NCBI GenBank assembly: GCA_000004695.1
Contig: CM000151.3
Location: 160,001-224,000, forward strand
Length of the DNA: 64,000 bases
From: Dictyostelium discoideum
Taxonomy: Eukaryota
Reading direction: 5' to 3'
Shown here: piece by piece, positions 19,519 to 36,196 of the stretch
How the letters are laid out: every line of letters starts with the position of its first letter
Position numbering within the stretch: position 1 is the stretch's first letter
Notes under the pieces: generated by a model
Told to the model about the DNA's origin: nothing
The model's input: the letters and a program-made list of their open reading frames with translations, nothing else
Databases searched by the model: none
Position numbers and translations under genes: made by a program

Positions 19519-20598
19519 TTATTCATCAGATTTAATTATTAAAGTTTCACCAATTTTACTAACACAAAATTCATTTTCTTTTAATCCAAGTTTTTGAGAT
19601 TCTTTAATTAGTAATTGTGGTGGTTCTAATATTGGTTCTGATGATAATAGATAAGTACCCCAATGAATACCAAAACTCTTTTTTGAGTTTAATTCTTTAT
19701 GAATTCTAACAGCTTCTTCAACATTGATATGACAAGATCTCATAAATTCTCTATTTAAATCGTATGCACCAATTGCAATTAAACTAAAATCAAATGGACC
19801 ATAATAATGAGAGATTTGTTTAAATAGTTGATCATGATCCGCTGTATCACCACTAAAATAAAATCTTTTATTCTTTCCAACCACACACCAACTACCCCAA
19901 AGATACTTATTACGATCAAACATACCTCTTTGTGATGAATGATTTGCTGGTGTATAAATTAATTTTAAACAATTATCATCATTATCATTATTTTTGGTAG
20001 TGGTAGTAGTATTTGTGGTAGTGTGGTGATAATGATTAATTTCATCCCACCAATTTAATTCAGTTACATTTTTAATTGAAGCAGATTGAAACCATACTTT
20101 TAAACCTTTTGGTACATAGAAATGACAATTTGGGAAAAGTTTTGAAATTTCAACAACTGCATCATAATCTAAATGATCGTAATGTGCATGACTAATGATT
20201 ACGAAATCTAATGTCGGTGGTAATTCTTTGATTGAACATGCTGGATCTCTGTATCTGTGTGGTCCAAATGGTAGATTTGGAATTGGTGTACATCTTTTAC
20301 TCCAAACTGGGTCAGTGATAAATGTAAATCCTTCCATTTGAATTAAACATGTTGAATGTCCAATCCAGGTCGACCTAATTGTAGTCTCTTTATCGTATTC
20401 TGAATTTATTAAATTAAAATCTGGTTTTAAAACTGGATGAATCTCTGTTTTTTCATATTCTGTTAATGGTAATATCTTTGGTCTTTTTGTTATATAATTC
20501 CATACATCTTTTGGTGATTTCTTTTCTTCATGATTAAAAAAATCTGAAAATGGGTTAATAAATCTACCATCTTCAAATATTGATAATGTTTTCTCCAT
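19519..20598 (-). CDS. N-acyl-phosphatidylethanolamine-hydrolysing phospholipase D (NAPE-PLD), metallo-beta-lactamase fold
   Basis: 359-aa single-exon ORF. WIGHSTCLIQMEGFTFITDP...LDFVIISHAHYDHLDYDAV...LWGSWCVVGKNKRFYFSGDT...FDFSLIAIGAY...VEEAVRIHKELNSKKSFGIHWGT aligns across the full length to mammalian NAPE-PLD, including the HxHxDH zinc motif. Confidence 0.85.
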   Translation of the reverse strand: MEKTLSIFEDGRFINPFSDFFNHEEKKSPKDVWNYITKRPKILPLTEYEKTEIHPVLKPDFNLINSEYDKETTIRSTWIGHSTCLIQMEGFTFITDPVWSKRCTPIPNLPFGPHRYRDPACSIKELPPTLDFVIISHAHYDHLDYDAVVEISKLFPNCHFYVPKGLKVWFQSASIKNVTELNWWDEINHYHHTTTNTTTTTKNNDNDDNCLKLIYTPANHSSQRGMFDRNKYLWGSWCVVGKNKRFYFSGDTADHDQLFKQISHYYGPFDFSLIAIGAYDLNREFMRSCHINVEEAVRIHKELNSKKSFGIHWGTYLLSSEPILEPPQLLIKESQKLGLKENEFCVSKIGETLIIKSDE

Positions 20599-21274
20599 AA
20601 TTAATTAAATAAATAAATAAATATTATGTTAAAAATTTATTTTTGTTATTGTTATTGTTTTTAAAAAATTAAAATTAAAATTAAAATTAAAAAAAAAAAA
20701 TAAATTAAAAAAAAAAAAAAAAAAAATAAAAAATAAAAAAAAAAAAAAAAAAAAAAATTAGATTTGAGATTTGAAATGAATTGCGTGTCTTTTTATTTGT
20801 CGACATAAATTAAATTTTTCAAAAAAAAAAAAAAAAAAAAAAAAGAATTATGTCATCAAAAATAACACCCACTTGTTATTATTATTTTAAAAAAAAAAAA
20901 AAAGAGAGAAAAAAAAGAAATAATTTGTTTATATCTTCTTACATTTTTTGAATTTACAAAAGGGTGCACTATACTTTTTGAAATTTTTTTTTTTGAAAAA
21001 TTTTTTAAAAAATTTGTCAATGTTGCTATTTTTAAAAGTCGATCCATTGCCAAAGATATTTTTAATCCCCAAAAAAAAAAGTTTTTTCTGCCTTGATAGG
21101 AGGTTTTAAAAAATAAAATAAAAACAATTTTTTTTTTTTTTTTTTTCCACAAAAAAACATAAAAAAAAAAAAAAATAAAAAAAAAAAAATAAAAAAAAAA
21201 AAAAATAAAAAAATTGAGAATTATTTACCACCGATAAAAATAAAAAATAAAAAAAATAAAAATAAAAAAAAAAT

Positions 21275-21835
21275 ATGGTGGAAATTAAAATTAGAAATGT
21301 GAATGAAAATGATATAAAAGAGATTACAAATATTTATAAACATTATGTTTTAAATGAAGTTTGTACATTTGAAGAAGAGGTACCAAGTGAAGAAGAGATG
21401 AATAAAAGAAGGTCAATTATTGTTGATAAGAATTTCCCTTACATTGTTGCAACAACAACTACAACCACAACAACAATAATAAAGGATGGAGCAAATGATA
21501 TCACTAAAGAAATTGTTATCGGATATGCATATGCATCATCATTTAGACCAAGAGCAGCATACAGATTCACAGTTGAGGATAGTATTTATATTGATATTAA
21601 TTATCAAAAGTTAGGTGTTGGTTCAATATTATTAAAAGAATTAATTTCACAATGTAAAGAAAAAGGTTTTAAAGAAATTATTGCAGTCATTGCTGCTGGT
21701 GGACCAAACCAAGTTGGCGGTTCCTCAATTAAATTACATAAAAAATTTGGTTTCGATAATCAACACACTTTAAAGAATGTTGGTTACAAATTTAATCAAT
21801 TTTTAGATACTGTTTCACTTCAATTATCATTATAA
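21275..21835 (+). CDS. GNAT-family N-acetyltransferase (phosphinothricin/L-amino-acid acetyltransferase-like)
   Basis: 186-aa ORF. IRNVNENDIKEITNIYKHYV...VGYAYASSFRPRAAYRFTVEDSIYIDINYQKLGVGSILLKELI...GFKEIIAVIA is a typical acetyl-CoA binding core (Q/RxxGxG/A). A poly-Thr insertion is present. Confidence 0.75.
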   Translation: MVEIKIRNVNENDIKEITNIYKHYVLNEVCTFEEEVPSEEEMNKRRSIIVDKNFPYIVATTTTTTTTIIKDGANDITKEIVIGYAYASSFRPRAAYRFTVEDSIYIDINYQKLGVGSILLKELISQCKEKGFKEIIAVIAAGGPNQVGGSSIKLHKKFGFDNQHTLKNVGYKFNQFLDTVSLQLSL

Positions 21836-22139
21836 TTTATAAAAAAATAATTAAAATAATAAAATTTTAAAAAAAAAAACTTTTTTTTTTTGTGAACAAG
21901 CACTTTGGCAAAAAAAAAAAAAAAAAAAAAAAATTTGACCCATAAACCCACACAAACACTAAAATCAAAAAAAAAAAAAAAAGATATAATTTTTATTTTT
22001 ATTTATTTATTTATTATTTTTTATTTTATTACTATTAAAAAAATGGAATTATTTTTTTAAAGTATGGAATGATATATATTTAAAACAATTAACATGTTGA
22101 ATTATTTAATTTATATAATGAAATTATAATTGAAAGTAG

Positions 22140-23107
22140 AAATGAATTATTAAATTTTATAAATAAAGAATATGTTAATTCAATTATATATTGTGGTAGA
22201 GGGAAATTATTTAAAATTGATTTCTTTGGGTATAATAATTAGAGAATATTCAATATAAATCAATTAATAATCAAGTACCAAATGGAATCAAACAATTAAT
22301 ATTACCAACTCATGATAATTTTAATTATAATTTATCATTATTACCAATTCAATTACATCAATAATAAATTTAAATTTATATCCAAATATCAATAATTATC
22401 AATAATAATAAAAATAATTTACTTTCAATTCCAAATAATATTAAGTCATTAGTTATTTTTGATAATAAAGTTTATAATAGCTATAATTATAATAATAATA
22501 ATAATAATAGTGAATTAAATTTAATAAATTTAATAAAATATAATTGTAATTTAGAATTTATTAAAGTAACTAATTCATATGGTTATTTTAGAGAATTACA
22601 AGTTAATGATTTTACAATGTTTTATAAAATTAAAAGTATTGAATATACCATATTTATTTATTGTGATACTAGTGAAAATCATTCAAATAGATTCAATAGG
22701 TTTACCAAATTCAGTTACAGATTTAAACCTCTTTTCATTAATAACTTTAAATGTATGTAAAGTATTATTAATTGATAATAAAGCACCATCTTCAATTTCA
22801 ATATCATCTGAAATCTCTAAAATTTCTAATGATTTTGGTAAACTACCATTATTATTTTTAATTCTAATTGGTTCACCAATTAACCTTACCATTTAATACT
22901 ATTTGGAAATAATGGTGATTCATCACCACCACCACCACCACCACCACCAACACCAATATAATTATATTCATAATAATCTTCTTTTATTATATAATTAATC
23001 ATATTTTTACAATCAATTGATAATTTATTAATTGATGATGGTATTGAAAATTCTTCAAACATTCCATAATAAATTTTATTATTATTATTTCTACTACTAT
23101 AAAACAC
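22140..23107. pseudogene. degenerate FNIP-repeat-like coding remnants on both strands
   Basis: Plus-strand frames give IPNGIKQLILPTHDNFNYNLSLLPIQLHQ* (22240-22365) and ...LSIPNNIKSLVIFDNKVYNS...CNLEFIKVTNSYGYFRELQ... (22390-22760) with no start codon and with stops. Minus ORFs 22683..22892 (GSLPKSLEILEISDDIEIEDG) and 22886..23107 (PLFPNSIKW) are FNIP-like and in different frames. Confidence 0.3.
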
Positions 23108-23148
23108 TTAAAAAATCATTACCAACATCATTAAAAAGAATTATAATT

Positions 23149-23211
<63 letters not shown>

Positions 23212-23397
23212 TCAAGATCTTTTATAGTTGATAATTCAAATTTTAAAAGAATAATTAAACAATTAGAACGACTTCCAAATTCAATAAGAATAATAAATAA
23301 AAATAATTAATTTTTTTTTATTTTAAACAAATAATAAAAGATAGGTGTCCCATACCCAATTTAATCAAAAATTTATAAGAAAAAATTAAAAAAATTA

Positions 23398-23439
<42 letters not shown>

Positions 23440-23659
23440 AAATTTTATTTTTTATTTTTTTTATTTTTTTTTTTATTTTTTTTAAATTAAAAAAAGGCAA
23501 CTTCACAAAATTTTTTTTTTTTTTTTTTTTTTTTAATTTTTTAATTTTTTTTTTTAATATTTTCACATTTATATATACATCAACTTCTACTTTTTTTTTA
23601 AATTTTCAAAAAAAAAAACAAAAAAGTAAACAAATAAAAAAACAAATAAACAAAAAAAT

Positions 23660-25473
23660 ATGGTAAAGGTAAATGTTAAATGGAATAAAGAGAAATATGA
23701 AGTTGATGTTGACCCATCAGAACCAGTTTCAAGTTTTAAAGGTCAATTATATTCATTAACTATGGTTCCAATAGAAAGACAAAAAAGTAATATTTAAATA
23801 TATATATATATTTTTACTGTTGATAATTTAAAGCTAATTTTTTTTTTTTTTGTGTATTAATAAAATAAAGTTATGGGATTTAAAGGTGGAATTTTAAAAG
23901 ATGATGCACAATGGAAAGATTTAGATTTAACAGAAGGAAAGAATTTAATGTTAATGGGATCAGCAGTAGAATTAGAGAAACCAGATAAACCAATTGTATT
24001 CCTTGAAGATTTACCACCAAGTAAAGCTGCAGCACTTAATAGTTTATTACCAGCTGGTTTAACTAATCTTGGTAATACTTGTTATTTAAATTCAACTTTA
24101 CAATGTTTAAAAACTGTACCTGAATTATTAACAATTATTAAAAAGTAAGTTTTTTTAAATAAATACATAAATCAATTAAAAATTATAATAATTTATTAAT
24201 ATATTTATTATTATTTATTATTATTTTTACTATTTTTTTAGTTATAAACCAAAAACAAATTCAAGATATTCAAATTTATTAAAAAGTTCACAAGGTTTAT
24301 TTAATGATTTATCAAGATTACATGAACCAGTAACACCATCAGTATTTTTGAATACATTTAGAATGTGTTTCCCAAGATTTTCAGAAAAGAGTCCAGAAGG
24401 ATTATATATGCAACAAGATGCAGAGGAGGCTTGGGGTGAATTATTAACAGCCTATGCTCACGAGTTACCATTGGATAATGCAAATGGCACTGATTCACAT
24501 TCTGCCGATTTGATAAAGAGATCAATGATTGGTAAATTGTTTGGTATTCAAGTGGTTGAGAAATTCACTTGTAAAGATAATCCAGAGGAAGAACCAACCA
24601 CTAGAGAGGAAACACTTTTAAAATTAGCATGTAATATCACCGTTGAAACAAGTTACCTTTTCGATGGTCTTAAAAAAGGTTTAGAAGAAGAGATTTCAAA
24701 AGCTTCACCAACACTTCACAAAGATGCAATCTATACAAAGAAAACTTTAATTAAACAATTACCAAAATATATTATGGTTCAATTTGTTAGATTCCATTGG
24801 AAAGATGCAACAAAAACAAAATCAAAAATTGTTAGAGTAATGTTATTTTTCATTTTTATTTTTATTTTTATTTTAATATAACAAGTTTATTAATTTTTTA
24901 TATTAATTCTAATTTTTATTACTATTATAGGTTGTACAATTCCCATTTACTTTAGATTTATTCGATTTATGTACACCAGAATATAAAGAAAGATTATCAC
25001 CAAATAGAAAGAGAGTGGAAGATGAATTTAATGCATCACTTGAAAGAAAGAGAAAAGTTATTGGTGGTAGTGGTGATGGTAATGATGAAGATGATAAACA
25101 AGTTGAAAAGAAAGCAGCAGTTAATAATGATAATCAACCACAATCTTCAACTTCTTCAAATGATTCAGTTTCTACTACAGGGGCTGCTGTTGATGATGAT
25201 GTCTTTTTCAAAGAGAATGAAACTGGTAAATATGAATTATGTGCTGTTTTAACTCATCAAGGTAGATATGCTGAATCTGGTCATTATGTTGCTTGGGTTA
25301 AGAAATCTGAAAATAAATGGTATAAATTTGATGATCGTGATGTCACAGAACATACAGATGAAGATATTAAAAAACTTTCAGGTGGTGGTGATTTCCATAT
25401 TTGTTATTTAGCACTTTATAGAACTCTTACCGTAAAACCAAAATCTTCTTCAACAATTACTGAACAAAAATAA
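23660..25473 (+). CDS. ubiquitin carboxyl-terminal hydrolase 14 (USP14/Ubp6) homolog with N-terminal ubiquitin-like domain
   Basis: Four-exon model join(23660..23786,23871..24144,24242..24836,24931..25473). Donors are GTAATA, GTAAGT and GTAATG. Exon 1 MVKVNVKWNKEKYEVDVDPSEPVSSFKGQLYSLTMVPIERQK is the UBL domain. Then ...GLTNLGNTCYLNSTLQCL (Cys box), ...GLYMQQDAEEAW, ...IMVQFVRFHWK, ...AVLTHQGRYAESGHYVAWVK...FDDRDV...LSGGGDFHICYLALY (His box), collinear with human USP14. Confidence 0.85.
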
Positions 25474-25500
25474 AATAAAATTTTTAAAAAGTTCATATTA

Positions 25501-25562
<62 letters not shown>

Positions 25563-25586
25563 TATAATACAATACAATTTATAGTA

Positions 25587-26735
25587 ATTTACATATGGTT
25601 TCAATTGGCTTTTATATTTATTAAATAAGTAATTTATAATATCTTGATAATCTGAATAATCTTTGTATACAATTATACCAAACCATTCAACCATATTAGA
25701 TGCTAATGGTTTGACATATCCATAGGATCCATTGATTATTATATTTTCATGTCCACCATCATCATTAGCATCCTCTTGTTCATATTGTTGTAATAAATTA
25801 TCTAATTTAATAAATGATTCTAAATCAAATGTTTTAATTATTAATTTCAATAGTTGGTGTTTTAAAAATGGTTTTTTGATTTTATTTTTCTTTCTAAATT
25901 TTAATTCAATTTCAAAATAATGTAAAAATAAATTAACTCTTGGATTATTATAATCTAACATTTTGGATACTTGGATATTAAAGTTATCTTTTACAATGTC
26001 CATGATTGTTGAATCGATAAATTGATTTAAATCTTTATTATTTCTATCAGTAAATATATATTCGAATGTATATACTGATTTATCTATATGATATTTCAAG
26101 AATGGTCTTTCTCTTTCAAAACCACCCGTGGGATCCTCAATAACGATTACACATGATCCGATGATTGGTGAAAAAGTTTTTAAATAATAGTATGAAGTGT
26201 ATTCTGAACTCTTTATTTTGATATAATTTGATATTAATTGATGAGCTGTTTTAATTTGGTCAATTGTTAAATTATTGACTCTAATTAACTTTAAATAAAA
26301 GAAATTTAATATCAATGATAAATTTGATAATGATAATTGACCATCTTTGAATCTATCAATTAAAAACTGAATAATATCAATTAAATCTTTATATAAATTT
26401 TTGCATGTATAGATTCTATTATGAAAACGATCTTTAAATGCTTTTTCATGTAATTTTAAATCTTTACCATTTAAATTATCAAGAATAAATTGTACACCTT
26501 CAAAATTTAAAAGTTCAATAAATGTTTGAAATAAATAAGAGGTTACATTTGGAAAGTTATTGAAATTTACTTTAATTTTAGTGAGATTGATTATTTGACA
26601 TGTTTGTTGAGTTGGTATTTTATATTGTTTGAATTTTTCATTTTCATGATAACCTGCCGAATCGTCCCAAATCTCCCCTTCTATAGAGTATGAGTTAATA
26701 AAAAACCGTCTTAAATTGTAATTAAATATTTTCAT
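25587..26735 (-). CDS. hypothetical protein, downstream (C-terminal) ORF segment; 3' end uncertain
   Basis: The ORF listed as 25416..26735 reads through an A56 tract (25501-25556) as poly-Phe, which is implausible. A GTAAAT donor follows ...KSQLKPY at about 25586, so I end the confident part there. No recognisable domain. Confidence 0.4.
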
Positions 26736-26737
26736 TA

Positions 26738-27490
26738 CTAAAACCCCCCACCACTATAGTCCAACAATAACTCATCAATAGAATCACAAATTAATCTTAG
26801 GTATTTAATTGAATTTTTTGAACCAAATTGAATAATTTGAATCATATAATATTTAAATAAATCTTCATTATCATTAAAGTTTGATTGGTTTAAACGATTG
26901 ATTAATGATACAATATCATCATGAGTACGTAAAATGTGAATATTACACAACTGTTTATTTGAATCTAAAATTGGAATTACTCGTTTAAATTTGATTCTTG
27001 CATATTCTAATAATTCTGATGTACTAAAATCAAGTTTCATTTGATTTAATTTTGAATTTAAAGCATTTCTTATTTTTAAAATACTACAACCACCTGTTTC
27101 GATATCTGATAACCAATCGATTGTTTCTTTATCTTTAATTGTAACAATCATATCATTATCAATTAGATTTGATGTAATTTCTTTCCATTTCGATAATAGA
27201 ATTAATTGAAATTGTTTTTCATGCAAATCGATAAGTTCCTTTGTTGATATTACATCATCTAATGGTTTTTCTTCAATATCCTCTATAATGATTGATTTTT
27301 GTGTGGAATAGATTTTATAGAACATAATAATATTGTTATTATCTATTTGATAACTTTTGAATAAAGTGTTGAGATATATTTCACCAATATAGTCCAAATC
27401 TGATTTTGTTATATTGATTTTTACATGTTTTTTCAATAGAAACTTTAATATATTGGTGCTATAGGTTTTTGCCATAAAATATATTAACAA
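26738..27490 (-). CDS. hypothetical protein, upstream ORF segment; separated from the 25587..26735 ORF by a single-base frame offset at a G6 tract
   Basis: 250-aa ORF ending ...LLDYSGGGF*. The stop TAG is at 26738-26740 and the ATG of the next ORF at 26733-26735. One extra G in the G6 run (plus-strand cccccc, 26744-26749) would fuse both into one ~690-aa protein. The open frame also extends about 70 codons upstream of the listed start. Confidence 0.4.
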   Translation of the reverse strand: MLIYFMAKTYSTNILKFLLKKHVKINITKSDLDYIGEIYLNTLFKSYQIDNNNIIMFYKIYSTQKSIIIEDIEEKPLDDVISTKELIDLHEKQFQLILLSKWKEITSNLIDNDMIVTIKDKETIDWLSDIETGGCSILKIRNALNSKLNQMKLDFSTSELLEYARIKFKRVIPILDSNKQLCNIHILRTHDDIVSLINRLNQSNFNDNEDLFKYYMIQIIQFGSKNSIKYLRLICDSIDELLLDYSGGGF

Positions 27491-28684
27491 TGGTTTAATT
27501 TTTTCACAGAGTCGAATGGTATCAATTAGTTCATTATATTCTTTTAAATACCATGCATATAAAACAATAGATTTAGTTTCATTAATTAATAGTTGAAATA
27601 AATTAAATTCTGAACCATAATCAGAAATGAATTGTGAACTATTTAATATACTTGAAAAATAATTTTCATGAAAAAATGCTTTACTAAAAAACCTGAAAAC
27701 AATATACCATCAATATTAATAAATTTAGATAAACCAATTGAATCAGACCTTTTCTTTTTATTTTAAAATTTAAAAATGATCCAGGCTTATTTTTTTATCT
27801 GGAAAAATGCTATTGAATTCCGAAAATGCAATACTAAAATCTATACTGGGGTCACTGCTTAAAAAACTTGTTTAAAATTTGAATAATAAATATGAAATCC
27901 ATTTAAATATCCAGAGTGTTCAACTAATATATTTAAATATGTATCATAATTTGTCATTTCAAATCAACAATTATTAAATTTTTTTTTTTAATGGTGTGGA
28001 GTATGTGGATGAATAAAGATAAAATCCAAATCTTTTTGTTGAATTTGAAAATATACATTTATAAAATTCTATTTTTGTTTCCCCAATTTCCTTATTTTCT
28101 GTGCCAAGTAATGTTTTATCAAAGTTTATAAAGTTAATATTTGTTGCTTTTAAATATGTTTATATAAAAGTTTGAAAAATGAGAAATCTTCCAAATCACA
28201 TCCATCAAAGAATACTTTTTTAGAATAATTGGAATATGTTGTAATTGTTAAGTTTTAATATTGTAAAATTTTATTGGAAACACATTCAGGTTGGTTGGAA
28301 ATATAGTTGTAATATAATCTATGGGAATTTTATCTGATTAATTAAATAGAAAAAATGGGAAAATATCTTTCATTTCACTAACAATATCTTTTTAAAAAAA
28401 AAAAAAAATTGGATAAAATTTTAAAAAAAATAGATTTCCATTTGGATAATTAAAAAAAAAATATTGGATAAAGATAATCAAAAAAGACACTTTTTATCCT
28501 ATAGTGGATAAAGGTAAAACACTAATTTTTTAAAAAAAAAAAAAATTGTTTCTATCCAACTGCCCCTCCCCCCTTTTTTTAAATTTTTTTTTTACTAAAA
28601 ACAAAATAATCCATATTAAAATAAACTAATTTTATTTTTTTTTGTTTTTTTTACTATAAAGTAAAGGATATTTTATTTTTAATA

Positions 28685-28894
28685 TCAACAGTAATTTGCA
28701 AATAGTGAAACAAACATCGAATTAAAACTTTCTGGCATTTCTTTCCAATCTCTTTTTGCATTCATGAATGCATTGTTAACAGCAGAACAATCTTGGCTAC
28801 TAATTTTGCAAACCCCACCATTGGCTTCATTAATTTCACCCAACACAAAAGAAAGAGTAATAATAAGTAAAATAAAAATAATAATTTTATTCAT
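28685..28894 (-). CDS. small secreted cysteine-containing peptide (69 aa), paralog A
   Basis: MNKIIIFILLIITLSFVLGE signal peptide plus a 49-aa mature peptide with 3 Cys. It is nearly identical to the ORF at 32510..32719, and flanking non-coding DNA is also duplicated. Confidence 0.55.
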   Translation of the reverse strand: MNKIIIFILLIITLSFVLGEINEANGGVCKISSQDCSAVNNAFMNAKRDWKEMPESFNSMFVSLFANYC

Positions 28895-29219
28895 TTCTTT
28901 ATTTTTAATTTTAGTTTTTTTTTTTTTTTAAAAAAAATATTTTTTTTTTTTTCTTTTTTTGAATGATTTTTAAAAATAAAATTATTTATTTAACCTTTTT
29001 ATAACTTTTTTTTTTTTTTTACCAATATTATTAAAAAAAAAATAATTACCATAACAAATAATTACTATTTTAAATTTCCATTTAAAATATTATAAAATAT
29101 TAATATAAATTTGTATTTGCCATCTTTTAAAATAAAACTATGTTATTACATGAAATTGTTTTTTTTTATTTTTTTTATTTTCTTTATAGTCATCAAATAT
29201 AGTTAAATACAAATTTAAA

Positions 29220-29251
<32 letters not shown>

Positions 29252-30326
29252 CATATGAACCTTTTTGTTTTTTTTTATTATAATAATTATTTGTGATATG
29301 GTAATTTTTGGAATTAAAAAAATTAAAAAAAAAATAACAAAAAATTAATAAAATTTAAAATAGATTAATCATGAATAGATAAATAAATAAACAAAAAAAA
29401 TGTTTTAAAAAGAAGAAATTTAGTGAATATCGTTTTCTAAGACTTTTTTTATACCAAAGATTTTAAATCCACCATCTTCATATTTTTCAATACCATTTTT
29501 GCAGTATTTAAAAAACATTAATATTTACTTATTTTATTTTATCTTTTTTATTTATATATAAAATATCGTAAATTAATTATTTATATTTTTATTTCATTTT
29601 ATTTTATTTTCTTTTTTATTTTAATTTTATTTTTTATTTTTTTTTTTAAATTTAATTTCCCTGTGAAATTTTAAAAATTACAACGAAATAATGAAAAAAT
29701 TAAAAATAATAATCTCCCCAGATCAGAAAAATCTATTAACAATTATTGTGAGATTTTCAAAAAAATATTAATGAAAAAAATTACTTGGTGGTAATTAATC
29801 ATAATTTCTATATTGAGATAGAGATTTTTTTTTTTTTTTTTTTTTTTTTCAAAATTACCCTATCATCCATTGTTTTTTTTTTTTTTTTAAAATAAAGTAT
29901 TTAAAATCCCACAATAAACAAAAATTTTTTTTTTTTTTTTTTCATTTTAAATATGATTTTGTTGTGAAATTTTTTTTTTTTTTTTTTTGTATTATTATAA
30001 AATTAATCAAATCAAAAAAAAAAAAATATGTCCATCTTGAATTTCTCTTTTTATTTTTACATATTAAAATTTTTTTTTCAAGAGTTAAATAATTTTTTAA
30101 GATACCAAAATTGGGGTTTAAAAGGGATTTTTTTTTTATTTTTTATTTGACCCATTACTTTTATTTTTTTTTATTTTAAATTTAATAATCATTGTCATTC
30201 TAATAAAATTAAAAAAAAATATTAAAAAAAAAATTAAAAAAAAAAATTTAAAAAACCAATCATTTTTTTTTTTTTTATCATTTTTCTCATTTTTTTTTCA
30301 ATATCATTTTAATAATAAAAAAACAG

Positions 30327-31266
30327 ATGGATCACATTCTTAAAGATAATAATAATATTAATAAAAATAATAAAGATAATGAAATATTATTTTTTAAAGT
30401 TTTTAGAAACCATTTTATATTTAATGAAATATTTAAACATGTTAGGCTATATGATTTACATGAATCAAAAGCTTATAGTATAAATTTAAAGGATTCTAAA
30501 TATAAAGATTATATTAAATATATATTTGATTTTAATTTTTCAATTAAAAATCAAAATATTTTAACAAATTTTAAAGAATTAATTAAATTAAAATTTAATA
30601 AAGATTTTAATAAGAAATTAAAAGCAAATTCAATACCAAATACAATTAAAATAATTATATTTAATAAAAATTATAAACAACCTATTGATTTAGGTATTTT
30701 ACCATCAAGTTTAGAATATTTAAGTTTTCATAGTTTTTATAATGATTCAAATTTTACAATAACAAGAAATTTATTACCAAATTCAATAACAACATTAATA
30801 TTCGATAATGATGAGCATAATGGATATGATGCATATAGAAATGATAGTGGTTGTTTTATAGATTTAAACATTGGAGGGATTTTACCAAATTCATTAACAA
30901 AATTAAATTTACCAAATAATTTTAATACGAAATTAAATTTCAAATCATTACCAAATTCAATTACAAGTTTAAAATTTGGTCTTTATAACGAACCATTAGA
31001 AGACAATGTTTTACCTGATAATTTGGTTGAATTAACAATGGTTTGTTTTAATAGAGATTTCCACGAAAATACATTTACAAATTGTAAACAAATTAATAAA
31101 TTAATTTTATATAAATTTAATCAAAAAATAAGTGGTACGAATTTACTACCAAAAAGTTTAACACATTTAGAATTACTATTTTTTAACCAACCAATAATGG
31201 ATACTACAAATAATAGTTTATTACCAAATAATTTAAAATATTTAGATATTACATATTATAATATTG

Positions 31267-31324
<58 letters not shown>

Positions 31325-32051
31325 TAATAATGGTTCATTATTTTTACCAAATTCCATTGAAACTTTAATCATCAATAAAATAAATTTATTTCCATCATTT
31401 CCTAATTCATTAACTTCTTTAGCAATGTCATATGAAAACAAAGGTTATATTTTTAAATTATTAAGCCTTTTACAAGATATTAATTTAAACAAATGTGTTT
31501 TCATTAAATATAAGCAATATATATACCCAAATTCTAATTTGGTAAGTCTTGTTTTTCATCCATCTAAAATAATTATGGAAAAAGAAAAAGAAAATGAAAA
31601 TGAAAATGAAAATGATGAATTTTTCAACCAAAAAAATATTAAAATAGTAGAAATAAAACAAAAAAATTTTAATTGGTCAAATTTACTAGAATTTAGATAT
31701 TTAAAAGAACTAATATTTGATAAAAATTCAACTTTTAATAAAAATTTAATTAAAGGAATTTTACCAGATTCTTTAGAAAGATTGGAGTTTGGAAAACATT
31801 GGAATAATGGTGATAATAAAAATGAAATAAATTTTTATGGAAAAGAGCTTAAAGTTGGTATATTCCCAAATCAAATTAAGTTTTTAAAATTTGGTAAATT
31901 ATTCTATAAATCTATTAAATTAGAGGCATTACCAACATCTTTAATTAAACTTTGTTTACCAAAGAAATCATTACTTTTATTGCCTAAAAATTACATTTTA
32001 AAATTCAAAATATCTTTATTAAAAAAAAAAAATATATATATTAAATATTAA
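30327..32051 (+). CDS. FNIP-repeat-containing protein
   Basis: 574-aa single ORF with more than 10 tandem ~22-aa FNIP units (ILPSSLEYLSFHSFYND, LLPNSITTLIFDNDEHNG, ILPNSLTKLNLPNNFN, SLPNSITSLKFGLYNEPL, LLPKSLTHLELLFFNQPI, LLPNNLKYLDI...). It also has an (AAT)24 poly-Asn tract. FNIP repeats are a dictyostelid-specific family. Confidence 0.8.
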
Positions 32052-32509
32052 TTAGTAAAAATAATATAAAAAAAAAAATAAAAAAAATAAAAAAAATAGA
32101 AACCAATGATTAAAAACCAATTGGTTTATTTAAATAACTATAAATTCTATTATTCTATACTATAATTTTGTTAATTTTTAAAAATTTTATTTGTTTTGTT
32201 TAAAAAAAAAAAAATTGTTTCTATCTAAAAATAAAAAAATAAAAAAAAAAAAACCGAAAGGTTTAAATGATTTTTTTTATATTTTAATAACTTTTGTATT
32301 TTAAGGGTCTAATTTATCTTATCAAAATCCAAATAAAAAATAATAAAAAATAAGTTGAAAAAAAAAAAATAATAGTGTGTGAAAAAAAGCCCTTTTTTTA
32401 AAATTTTTTTTTTTTCCAAAAACAAAAATAAGACATATTAAAATAAACTAATTTTTTTTTTTATTTTGTTTTTTTTACTATAATGTAAAGGATATTTTAT
32501 TTTTTAATA

Positions 32510-32719
32510 TCAACAGTAATTTGCAAATAGTGAAACAAACATCGAATTAAAACTTTCTGGCATTTCTTTCCAATCTCTTTTTGCATTCATGAATGCATTG
32601 TAAACAGCAGAACAATCTTGGATATCAATTTTGCAAACCCCGCCATTGGCTTCATTAATTTCACCCAACACAAAAGAAAGAGTAATAATAAGTAAAATAA
32701 AAATAATAATTTTATTCAT
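32510..32719 (-). CDS. small secreted cysteine-containing peptide (69 aa), paralog B
   Basis: Identical to paralog A except CKISSQDCSAVNNAF became CKIDIQDCSAVYNAF, four nucleotide changes that are all nonsynonymous. Same orientation, 3825 bp downstream. Confidence 0.55.
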   Translation of the reverse strand: MNKIIIFILLIITLSFVLGEINEANGGVCKIDIQDCSAVYNAFMNAKRDWKEMPESFNSMFVSLFANYC

Positions 32720-33218
32720 TTCTTTATTTTTAATTTGAGTTTTTTTTTTTTTTTTTTAAAAAAAATATATTTTTTTTTTGTTTTTTTAAATGATTTTTAA
32801 AAATAAAATAATTTATTTAACCTTTTATATTACTTTTTTGAAAAAAAAAAAAAAAAAATAAATAATTATGTTACCATAACAAAGATTTACTATTTTAAAT
32901 TTATAATTAAAATATTATAAAATATTAGAAATTTAAAATAGTAAATATTTGTTAGATTTTTATTTGCCATCTTTTAAATCTTTTGTTTTTAAATCTTTTT
33001 TTTTTTTTTTTATAGCCAACAAATAAAATCATGACATTACATGAAATTGTTTTTTTTTTTTTTTCTTTATAGTCAACAAATTCTTAAACAAAAAAAAAAC
33101 ATGTGAGAATCTTTTTGTTTTTTTCATTATCACAATTATTAATATAAAGGTGCAACAAATATTCTTAAAAAAAAAAAAAAAAATTTAATTCGATAAATTC
33201 TCTTATAAATAAATTTTA

Positions 33219-36196
<2,978 letters not shown>

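Follow-up and report, generated by a model that had tools for sequence, protein, structure and literature searches.

Two open reading frames (ORFs) lie back to back on the minus strand of the stretch of DNA analysed here, a window of 64,000 nucleotides with a G+C content of about 21% that carries genes of Dictyostelium discoideum, and their junction raises the question of what separates them. A sequence-only reading had described the pair as offset by one nucleotide at a G6/C6 run, for which it offered a sequencing error that splits one gene, a recent pseudogenisation or a two-cistron arrangement. The arrangement was real, and both the sequence and the coordinates were confirmed. The minus strand reads ...GAC TAT AGT GGT GGG GGG TTT TAG TA ATG AAA ATA TTT..., with TAG at 26740-26738, followed by TA and then by ATG at 26735-26733. 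Both listed ORFs were present on this strand: 26738..27490 encodes 250 aa from a mechanically assigned TTG start and ends in ...DYSGGGF, and 25416..26735 encodes 439 aa and starts with MKIFNYNL. When no start codon was required, the upstream frame extended back to 27709, giving 323 open codons, and the downstream frame back to 26753, so that its translation begins W-W-G-V-L-V-M. The remark that such hexamers are rare was also borne out, as only four runs of at least six G or C occurred in the 64 kb window.

We found that the conceptual fusion of the two ORFs matched 32 Dictyostelium proteins in the protein collection, with E values down to 0; most were 1009-1122 aa long and all were labelled 'hypothetical'. 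The family homology of the fused fragment, over the C-terminal two-thirds, reached E = 0, with about 27 members being 64-93% identical to it. The abutment of the two ORFs is not due to chance, since the regions of the family to which they are homologous follow directly on each other. In an alignment with the sister-strain model of the locus, residues bridged the junction in 24 of the 29 other aligned family proteins; the remaining five were short or partial models (P0003, P0029 and P0030), unaligned there (P0005) or gapped there (P0019). No stop or second start was found at the junction in any of the 29. The single uninterrupted frame over the ...DYxGWGVLV... region, continuous in the ACTFIT assembly as well as in these 24 members, is broken in the window. 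Every full-length family protein except two reads straight over the junction as ...DYSGWGVLVMKIFNY..., and the closest members carry ...DSIDELLLDYSGWGVLV(M/I)KIFNY..., that is, DYSGWGVLV(M/I)KIFNY. Furthermore, tblastn analysis with P0002 (DDB_G0271218) placed residues 341-634 on the upstream frame with 94% identity and residues 633-1022 on the downstream frame with 90% identity, the latter match beginning at WGVLVM. The matches meet at W633, so the ATG (26735-26733) encodes the internal methionine of ...WGVLVMKIF... and is not a real start. The TAG at 26740-26738 is an out-of-frame triplet taken from TT-TTA-GTA, a premature stop created by the frameshift. Taken with the alignments, this shows that both ORFs form one continuous coding sequence of a Dictyostelium-specific, uncharacterised family with proteins of about 1000-1100 aa. 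No significant Pfam domain was detected in the fused fragment or in three full-length members, and a literature search on the gene identifiers found no papers. The proposal that a single coding sequence had been split by a one-nucleotide offset was thus upheld, homologues being continuous across the junction. A check for orthologs existing as two separate genes was negative, and the two-cistron arrangement was rejected, as no homologue starts or stops at the junction.

The base responsible was located by comparison with a second assembly. The orthologous locus in GCA_054883475.1 (ACTFIT_ tags, L001/L002) aligned to window positions 20538-33900 at 99.4-99.8% identity. Over the fragment and its upstream region (window 29168-25532) the pairwise alignment revealed exactly one difference, an extra T in GCA_054883475.1, which reads AGTGGTTGGGGGG where the window reads AGTGGTGGGGGG. 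At the site itself, ACTATAGTGGTTGGGGGGTTT in ACTFIT is aligned with ACTATAGTGG-TGGGGGGTTT in the window, and the two alleles to be told apart are GGTGGGGGG and GGTTGGGGGG. When the ACTFIT gene model was mapped onto the window, its two halves shared base 26750. In L005, the full-length paralogue of that assembly, the junction reads GAT TGG GGG GTT, and therefore the G6 run is an ancestral Trp-Gly-Val string that has not changed. The two features at the junction are as follows.

Positions 26744 to 26749, minus strand (C6 on the plus strand): the G6 run, in codons TGG-GGG-GTT (Trp-Gly-Val), conserved, intact and no different in length in the sister assembly or the paralogue.
Positions 26750 to 26751, minus strand: the site of the one-nucleotide deletion, GG-T-GGGGGG in the window versus GG-TT-GGGGGG in the sister assembly, and the sole frame-breaking lesion.

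These alignments show that the lost base is a T (TT to T at 26750/51) immediately 5' of the G6 run, and not a G; the loss of one T turns GGT TGG GGG GTT into GGTGGGGGGTT. The earlier suggestion of adding a G to the G6 run does bring the two ORFs into one frame, with SGGGVLV as the result, whereas the SGWGVLV of the family and the sister assembly needs a T. Nor does the lesion concern the length of the homopolymer, as had been supposed: the G6 run is intact and ancestral, and it is the T of the adjoining TT that is gone. The lesson is that a base loss need not sit in the homopolymer that adjoins a frameshift.

Programmed -1 ribosomal frameshifting, or transcriptional slippage, on T-GGG-GGG would also join the two ORFs. 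Re-reading the T (-1 after GGT) gives the exact family sequence SGWGVLV, and homopolymeric G runs permit tRNA re-pairing. However, the shift is not conserved: a single frame is kept in the sister assembly, in the paralogue and in each of the 24 family members with residues at the site. No slippery heptamer X XXY YYZ was found in the zero frame, where the codons are GGT GGG GGG TTT TAG, and a search for a downstream stimulatory RNA structure was negative, the 113 nt (-11.9 kcal/mol) being no more stable when folded than shuffled sequences (z = +0.58). We rejected recoding at this site as extremely improbable.

The locus has already been annotated as a hypothetical protein in two public models, DDB_G0271262 (XP_645689.1, P0003, 675 aa) and ACTFIT_002057 (P0001, 740 aa), and both map exactly onto window exons. 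Two features matter to these models.

Positions 26710 to 26771, minus strand: the 62-nt GT..AG 'intron' of DDB_G0271262, which leads from exon 2 in frame 1 to exon 3 in frame 0 and takes out 21 codons.
Positions 28685 to 28894, minus strand: a 69-aa signal-peptide ORF with its own stop, an independent ORF whose first 59 codons are used as 'exon 1' in both public models.

DDB_G0271262 opens with the 59 codons of the small ORF (28894-28718), which lie about 1 kb away from the exon to which they are joined. ACTFIT_002057 has the same borrowed first exon and reads through the junction, because the ACTFIT assembly has TT. That the first exon is borrowed from an unrelated ORF follows from the small ORF having its own stop and a complete, 86%-identical duplicate at 32390-33025. 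Both public models are therefore chimeric. A real short spliceosomal intron at 26771-26710, leaving the gene intact as in DDB_G0271262, or else separate cistrons or genes for the two ORFs, was rejected as very unlikely. The expected dinucleotides are in place (GT at 26771/70 and AG at 26711/10), and taking out the 62 nt brings the two frames together, with the annotated P0003 as the product. Yet the 21 removed codons (LLLDYSGWGVLVMKIFNYNLR) are translated, conserved sequence in family members, the paralogues and the ACTFIT model. The 5' site is GTTATT, and the usual Dictyostelium intron 5' site is GTAAGT-like. The same model also contains a needless in-frame 'intron' of 69 nt and the 'intron' of about 1 kb that leads to the unrelated ORF. 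Separate genes are opposed by the internal position of the methionine within WGVLVMKIF and by the homologues, none of which starts or stops there. A hand splice from GTAATG at 26738 was tried and rejected, since with the only AG in the vicinity the intron would be 29 nt long and a TAA codon would result. The second, 69-nt 'intron' of DDB_G0271262 (26211-26279, minus strand) removes 23 family-conserved codons (VNNLTIDQIKTAHQLISNYIKIK) and is likely to be another annotation artefact. We judge the model to be wrong in three ways, namely an invented 62-nt intron, a needless in-frame intron and a borrowed first exon.

We then delimited the coding sequence against the closest full-length paralogue, DDB_G0271218 / ACTFIT_002070, and found that only part of the gene is present. 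Its parts and flanks are the following.

Positions 26741 to 27601, minus strand: the fragment's upstream half, matching codons ~349-632 of the paralogue (tblastn 94%; blastn start sharp at 27601).
Positions 25577 to 26750, minus strand: the fragment's downstream half, matching codons 633-1025 of the paralogue (tblastn 90%).
Positions 25416 to 25576, minus strand: non-homologous read-through tail, a poly-T of about 55 nt (poly-Phe) and then the 3' end of the convergent ubiquitin-hydrolase gene, read in antisense.
Positions 27602 to 28684, minus strand: upstream sequence without family homology, with short coding-like pieces in shifting frames (three-frame translation, tblastn).

Nucleotide homology to the paralogue extends from 27601 to 25577 only, a stretch of 2.03 kb that corresponds to codons 349-1025 of 1029 with 96.3% identity, and both boundaries are sharp. 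It stops at 25577, 14 nt short of the paralogue's stop codon, and without the native last codons and stop the frame runs through the poly-T into the antisense of the ubiquitin-hydrolase 3' end. The N-terminal ~340 residues of the family (MNNEYNE.LFWKVFKNKYLL...) were sought by tblastn with three family N-termini in window 27400-31000, and none was found upstream of 27625 on the strand of the gene; the sole match was to the N-terminus of the adjacent FNIP gene on the opposite strand. In the protein search with the conceptual fusion, no match covered 27602..28684. The earlier reading was right that the fusion makes one protein, but its product of about 690 aa is not a complete gene, since full-length members have 1009-1122 aa and the fragment covers only codons ~349-1025. 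Even with the T restored, the locus, given these boundaries, is an internal fragment without the N-terminal third, an evident start or promoter, or the native stop, and not as a complete gene.

Based on this structure, we infer that the fragment is non-functional. Against this, 677 codons are open once the T is restored, the four other indels relative to the paralogue (6, 3, 12 and 3 nt) are all multiples of three, and dN/dS against the paralogue is 0.77, which is not clearly 1. A high share of indels in multiples of three has been reported for Dictyostelium discoideum (PMC7466956), and the argument from indel lengths is weaker for that reason. Two observations were made in the flanks. At 27646-27963 on the minus strand, coding-like pieces in shifting frames (MTNYDTYLNILVEHSGYLNGFHIYYSNFKQVF / LSSDPSIDFSIAFSEFNSIFPDKKISLDHF / KRSDSIGLSKFINIDGILFSGFL) yielded no detectable homologue; they may represent what is left of another degraded gene. 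At 25500-25570, the poly-T (minus strand, ~55 nt) lies exactly where homology to the other strains ends, and in the ACTFIT assembly this tract is shorter by about 30 nt.

The distribution of the locus among related genomes gave insight into its age, and the unit concerned is larger than the fragment itself.

Positions 25515 to 29406: the segment of about 3.9 kb that carries the fragment, found in the window and in ACTFIT and absent at the same position in three related genomes.

In ACTFIR (L003), ACTFIW (L004) and ACTFIZ (L006), intergenic sequence and a FNIP-repeat gene come straight after the ubiquitin-hydrolase gene, and gene maps and sequence revealed no counterpart of window ~25515-29406 downstream of the ubiquitin-hydrolase gene in any of the three. 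L003 was compared by sequence, and L004 was judged from its gene map, a sequence read-out and a short alignment. The 3.9 kb segment contains the family fragment, about 1.1 kb of unassignable sequence and the small signal-peptide ORF. As the segment is absent from the three related genomes, the locus is a young, lineage-restricted partial duplicate, a fragment of a copy close to DDB_G0271218.

Other features were noticed in the neighbourhood. A direct duplication of about 630 bp with 86% identity occupies 28571-29199 and 32390-33025, and each copy contains a complete 69-aa signal-peptide ORF (MNKIIIFILLIITLSFVLGEINEANGGVCKI...FANYC). Adjoining the duplicated 630-bp segment, 32136-32432 differs from the otherwise identical ACTFIT sequence by about 30 substitutions and small indels within 300 bp, a cluster that could reflect local misassembly or gene conversion between repeats. 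In the FNIP-repeat gene at 30327-32051 (plus strand, 574 aa), the N-terminus (30366-30608) weakly matches the MNNEYNE... family motif, with about 30% identity and an E value of 7e-6, which hints at an N-terminal module shared by the FNIP-repeat and DDB_G0271218-like Dictyostelium families.

It was then asked whether the single T is a property of the cells or of the assembly. The window ORFs are exact matches to proteins common to AX4 and ACTFIT, and the window therefore belongs to the same NC4-derived laboratory lineage; these matches do not discriminate between the two. About 50 differences in 8.4 kb, mostly in homopolymer lengths and with one SNP cluster, separate the window from ACTFIT, so the window is not the ACTFIT assembly itself. 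We infer that the window is the AX4 reference and that GCA_054883475.1 is AX2-214, both being derived from NC4. The identification of the window rests on its difference from GCA_054883475.1, the one other NC4-lineage assembly that was found, on the match of its ORFs to AX4 proteins and on the intron that the AX4 model sets over the junction. Holland et al. sequenced the laboratory strain AX2-214 together with wild isolates and are the source of the ACTFIT assemblies, and AX4 and AX2 were 99.5% identical at another locus (PMC12745789).

On the comparison of the two assemblies, the missing T is probably a base-calling or assembly error in the source assembly of the window. A base beside a G-rich patch in AT-rich DNA may have been lost to band compression in the Sanger-era AX4 chromosome 2 reference; a base dropped next to a G-rich patch is a plausible Sanger compression artefact. 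The alternative, to which we give a smaller but real share of the probability, is a true one-nucleotide deletion in the strain lineage of the window (for example AX3/AX4) after its split from the AX2 type, which would have disabled an already truncated, probably unconstrained fragment. TT is ancestral, being found in the sister assembly and in all paralogues, so the single T of the window is the derived state, in keeping with this alternative. A frameshift would probably be cost-free, as the fragment lacks start and stop and its dN/dS is 0.77. The AX3 lineage, moreover, passed through chemical mutagenesis, which was counted in favour of a deletion. On the other side, indels have been measured to arise at 4.9e-11 per site per generation (PMC7466956), which makes a new one within 2 kb over a few decades of culture very improbable; for the time since the laboratory lineages split, we estimate the chance of a true new indel in the 2 kb at roughly 1 in 1000. 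With the rate so low and technical differences between assemblies abundant, a real mutation is improbable a priori. Technical differences between these two assemblies are far commoner than that, and no other substitution separates them across 3.6 kb around the site.

Several further observations bear on the same choice. The 62-nt 'intron' of DDB_G0271262 is no proof of a deletion in the reference, because with TT the segment (63 nt) is also in frame. We considered that the TT in ACTFIT might be a polishing artefact from reads of the paralogue and found this unlikely, since the paralogue bases 2-6 nt upstream (CTTGA vs AGTGG) were not carried over. Exact ORF products, used to look for independent read-based assemblies (Logan) of either allele, were not found in the protein collection, and the AX4 resequencing papers PMC5052037 and PMC4374526 contained no usable count of reference errors. 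Both a sequencing error and a recent pseudogenisation, as first offered for the locus, are still standing, and the error is the one we favour.

There is also a very slim chance that AX4-type cells truly carry the single T and still express the fragment, which would then yield two polypeptides or, by low-level -1 slippage on T-GGGGGG, the full fragment protein. In that case the locus, belonging to a fast-evolving Dictyostelium family, would be a young, truncated, strain-specific copy on its way to being lost or to gaining a new role. This is an ordinary finding at an already annotated locus, with no new biology unless the fragment is expressed. Its value lies in curation, where the locus would be called a DDB_G0271218 family copy truncated at both its 5' and its 3' end, together with a probable single-base reference error.

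Compared with known systems, the junction resembles programmed -1 frameshift sites, such as those of viral gag-pol and bacterial dnaX, in that two overlapping frames meet at a homopolymeric run, but unlike them it is without a canonical heptamer, a downstream structure or a conserved shift. The closest full-length relative is DDB_G0271218 / ACTFIT_002070, which shares 96.3% nucleotide and about 92% amino-acid identity with the fragment over 2.03 kb, with the same codon order and the same TGG-GGG-GTT. That paralogue is a single uninterrupted exon of 1029 codons with its own start and stop, whereas the window copy lacks codons 1-348, the last four codons and the stop, and carries the one-nucleotide deletion. 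The family also includes DDB_G0276409, DDB_G0276403, DDB_G0276401 and many strain-specific copies; it has no Pfam domain, is uncharacterised and is diversifying rapidly. The locus differs from a decayed pseudogene in that, aside from the single T, 677 codons are open and the other indels are multiples of three, so that decay is minimal. It is like an unprocessed (duplicated) pseudogene or gene fragment made by partial segmental duplication, with sharp boundaries inside the coding region, no start or stop, a frame-breaking indel and an occurrence in one lineage.
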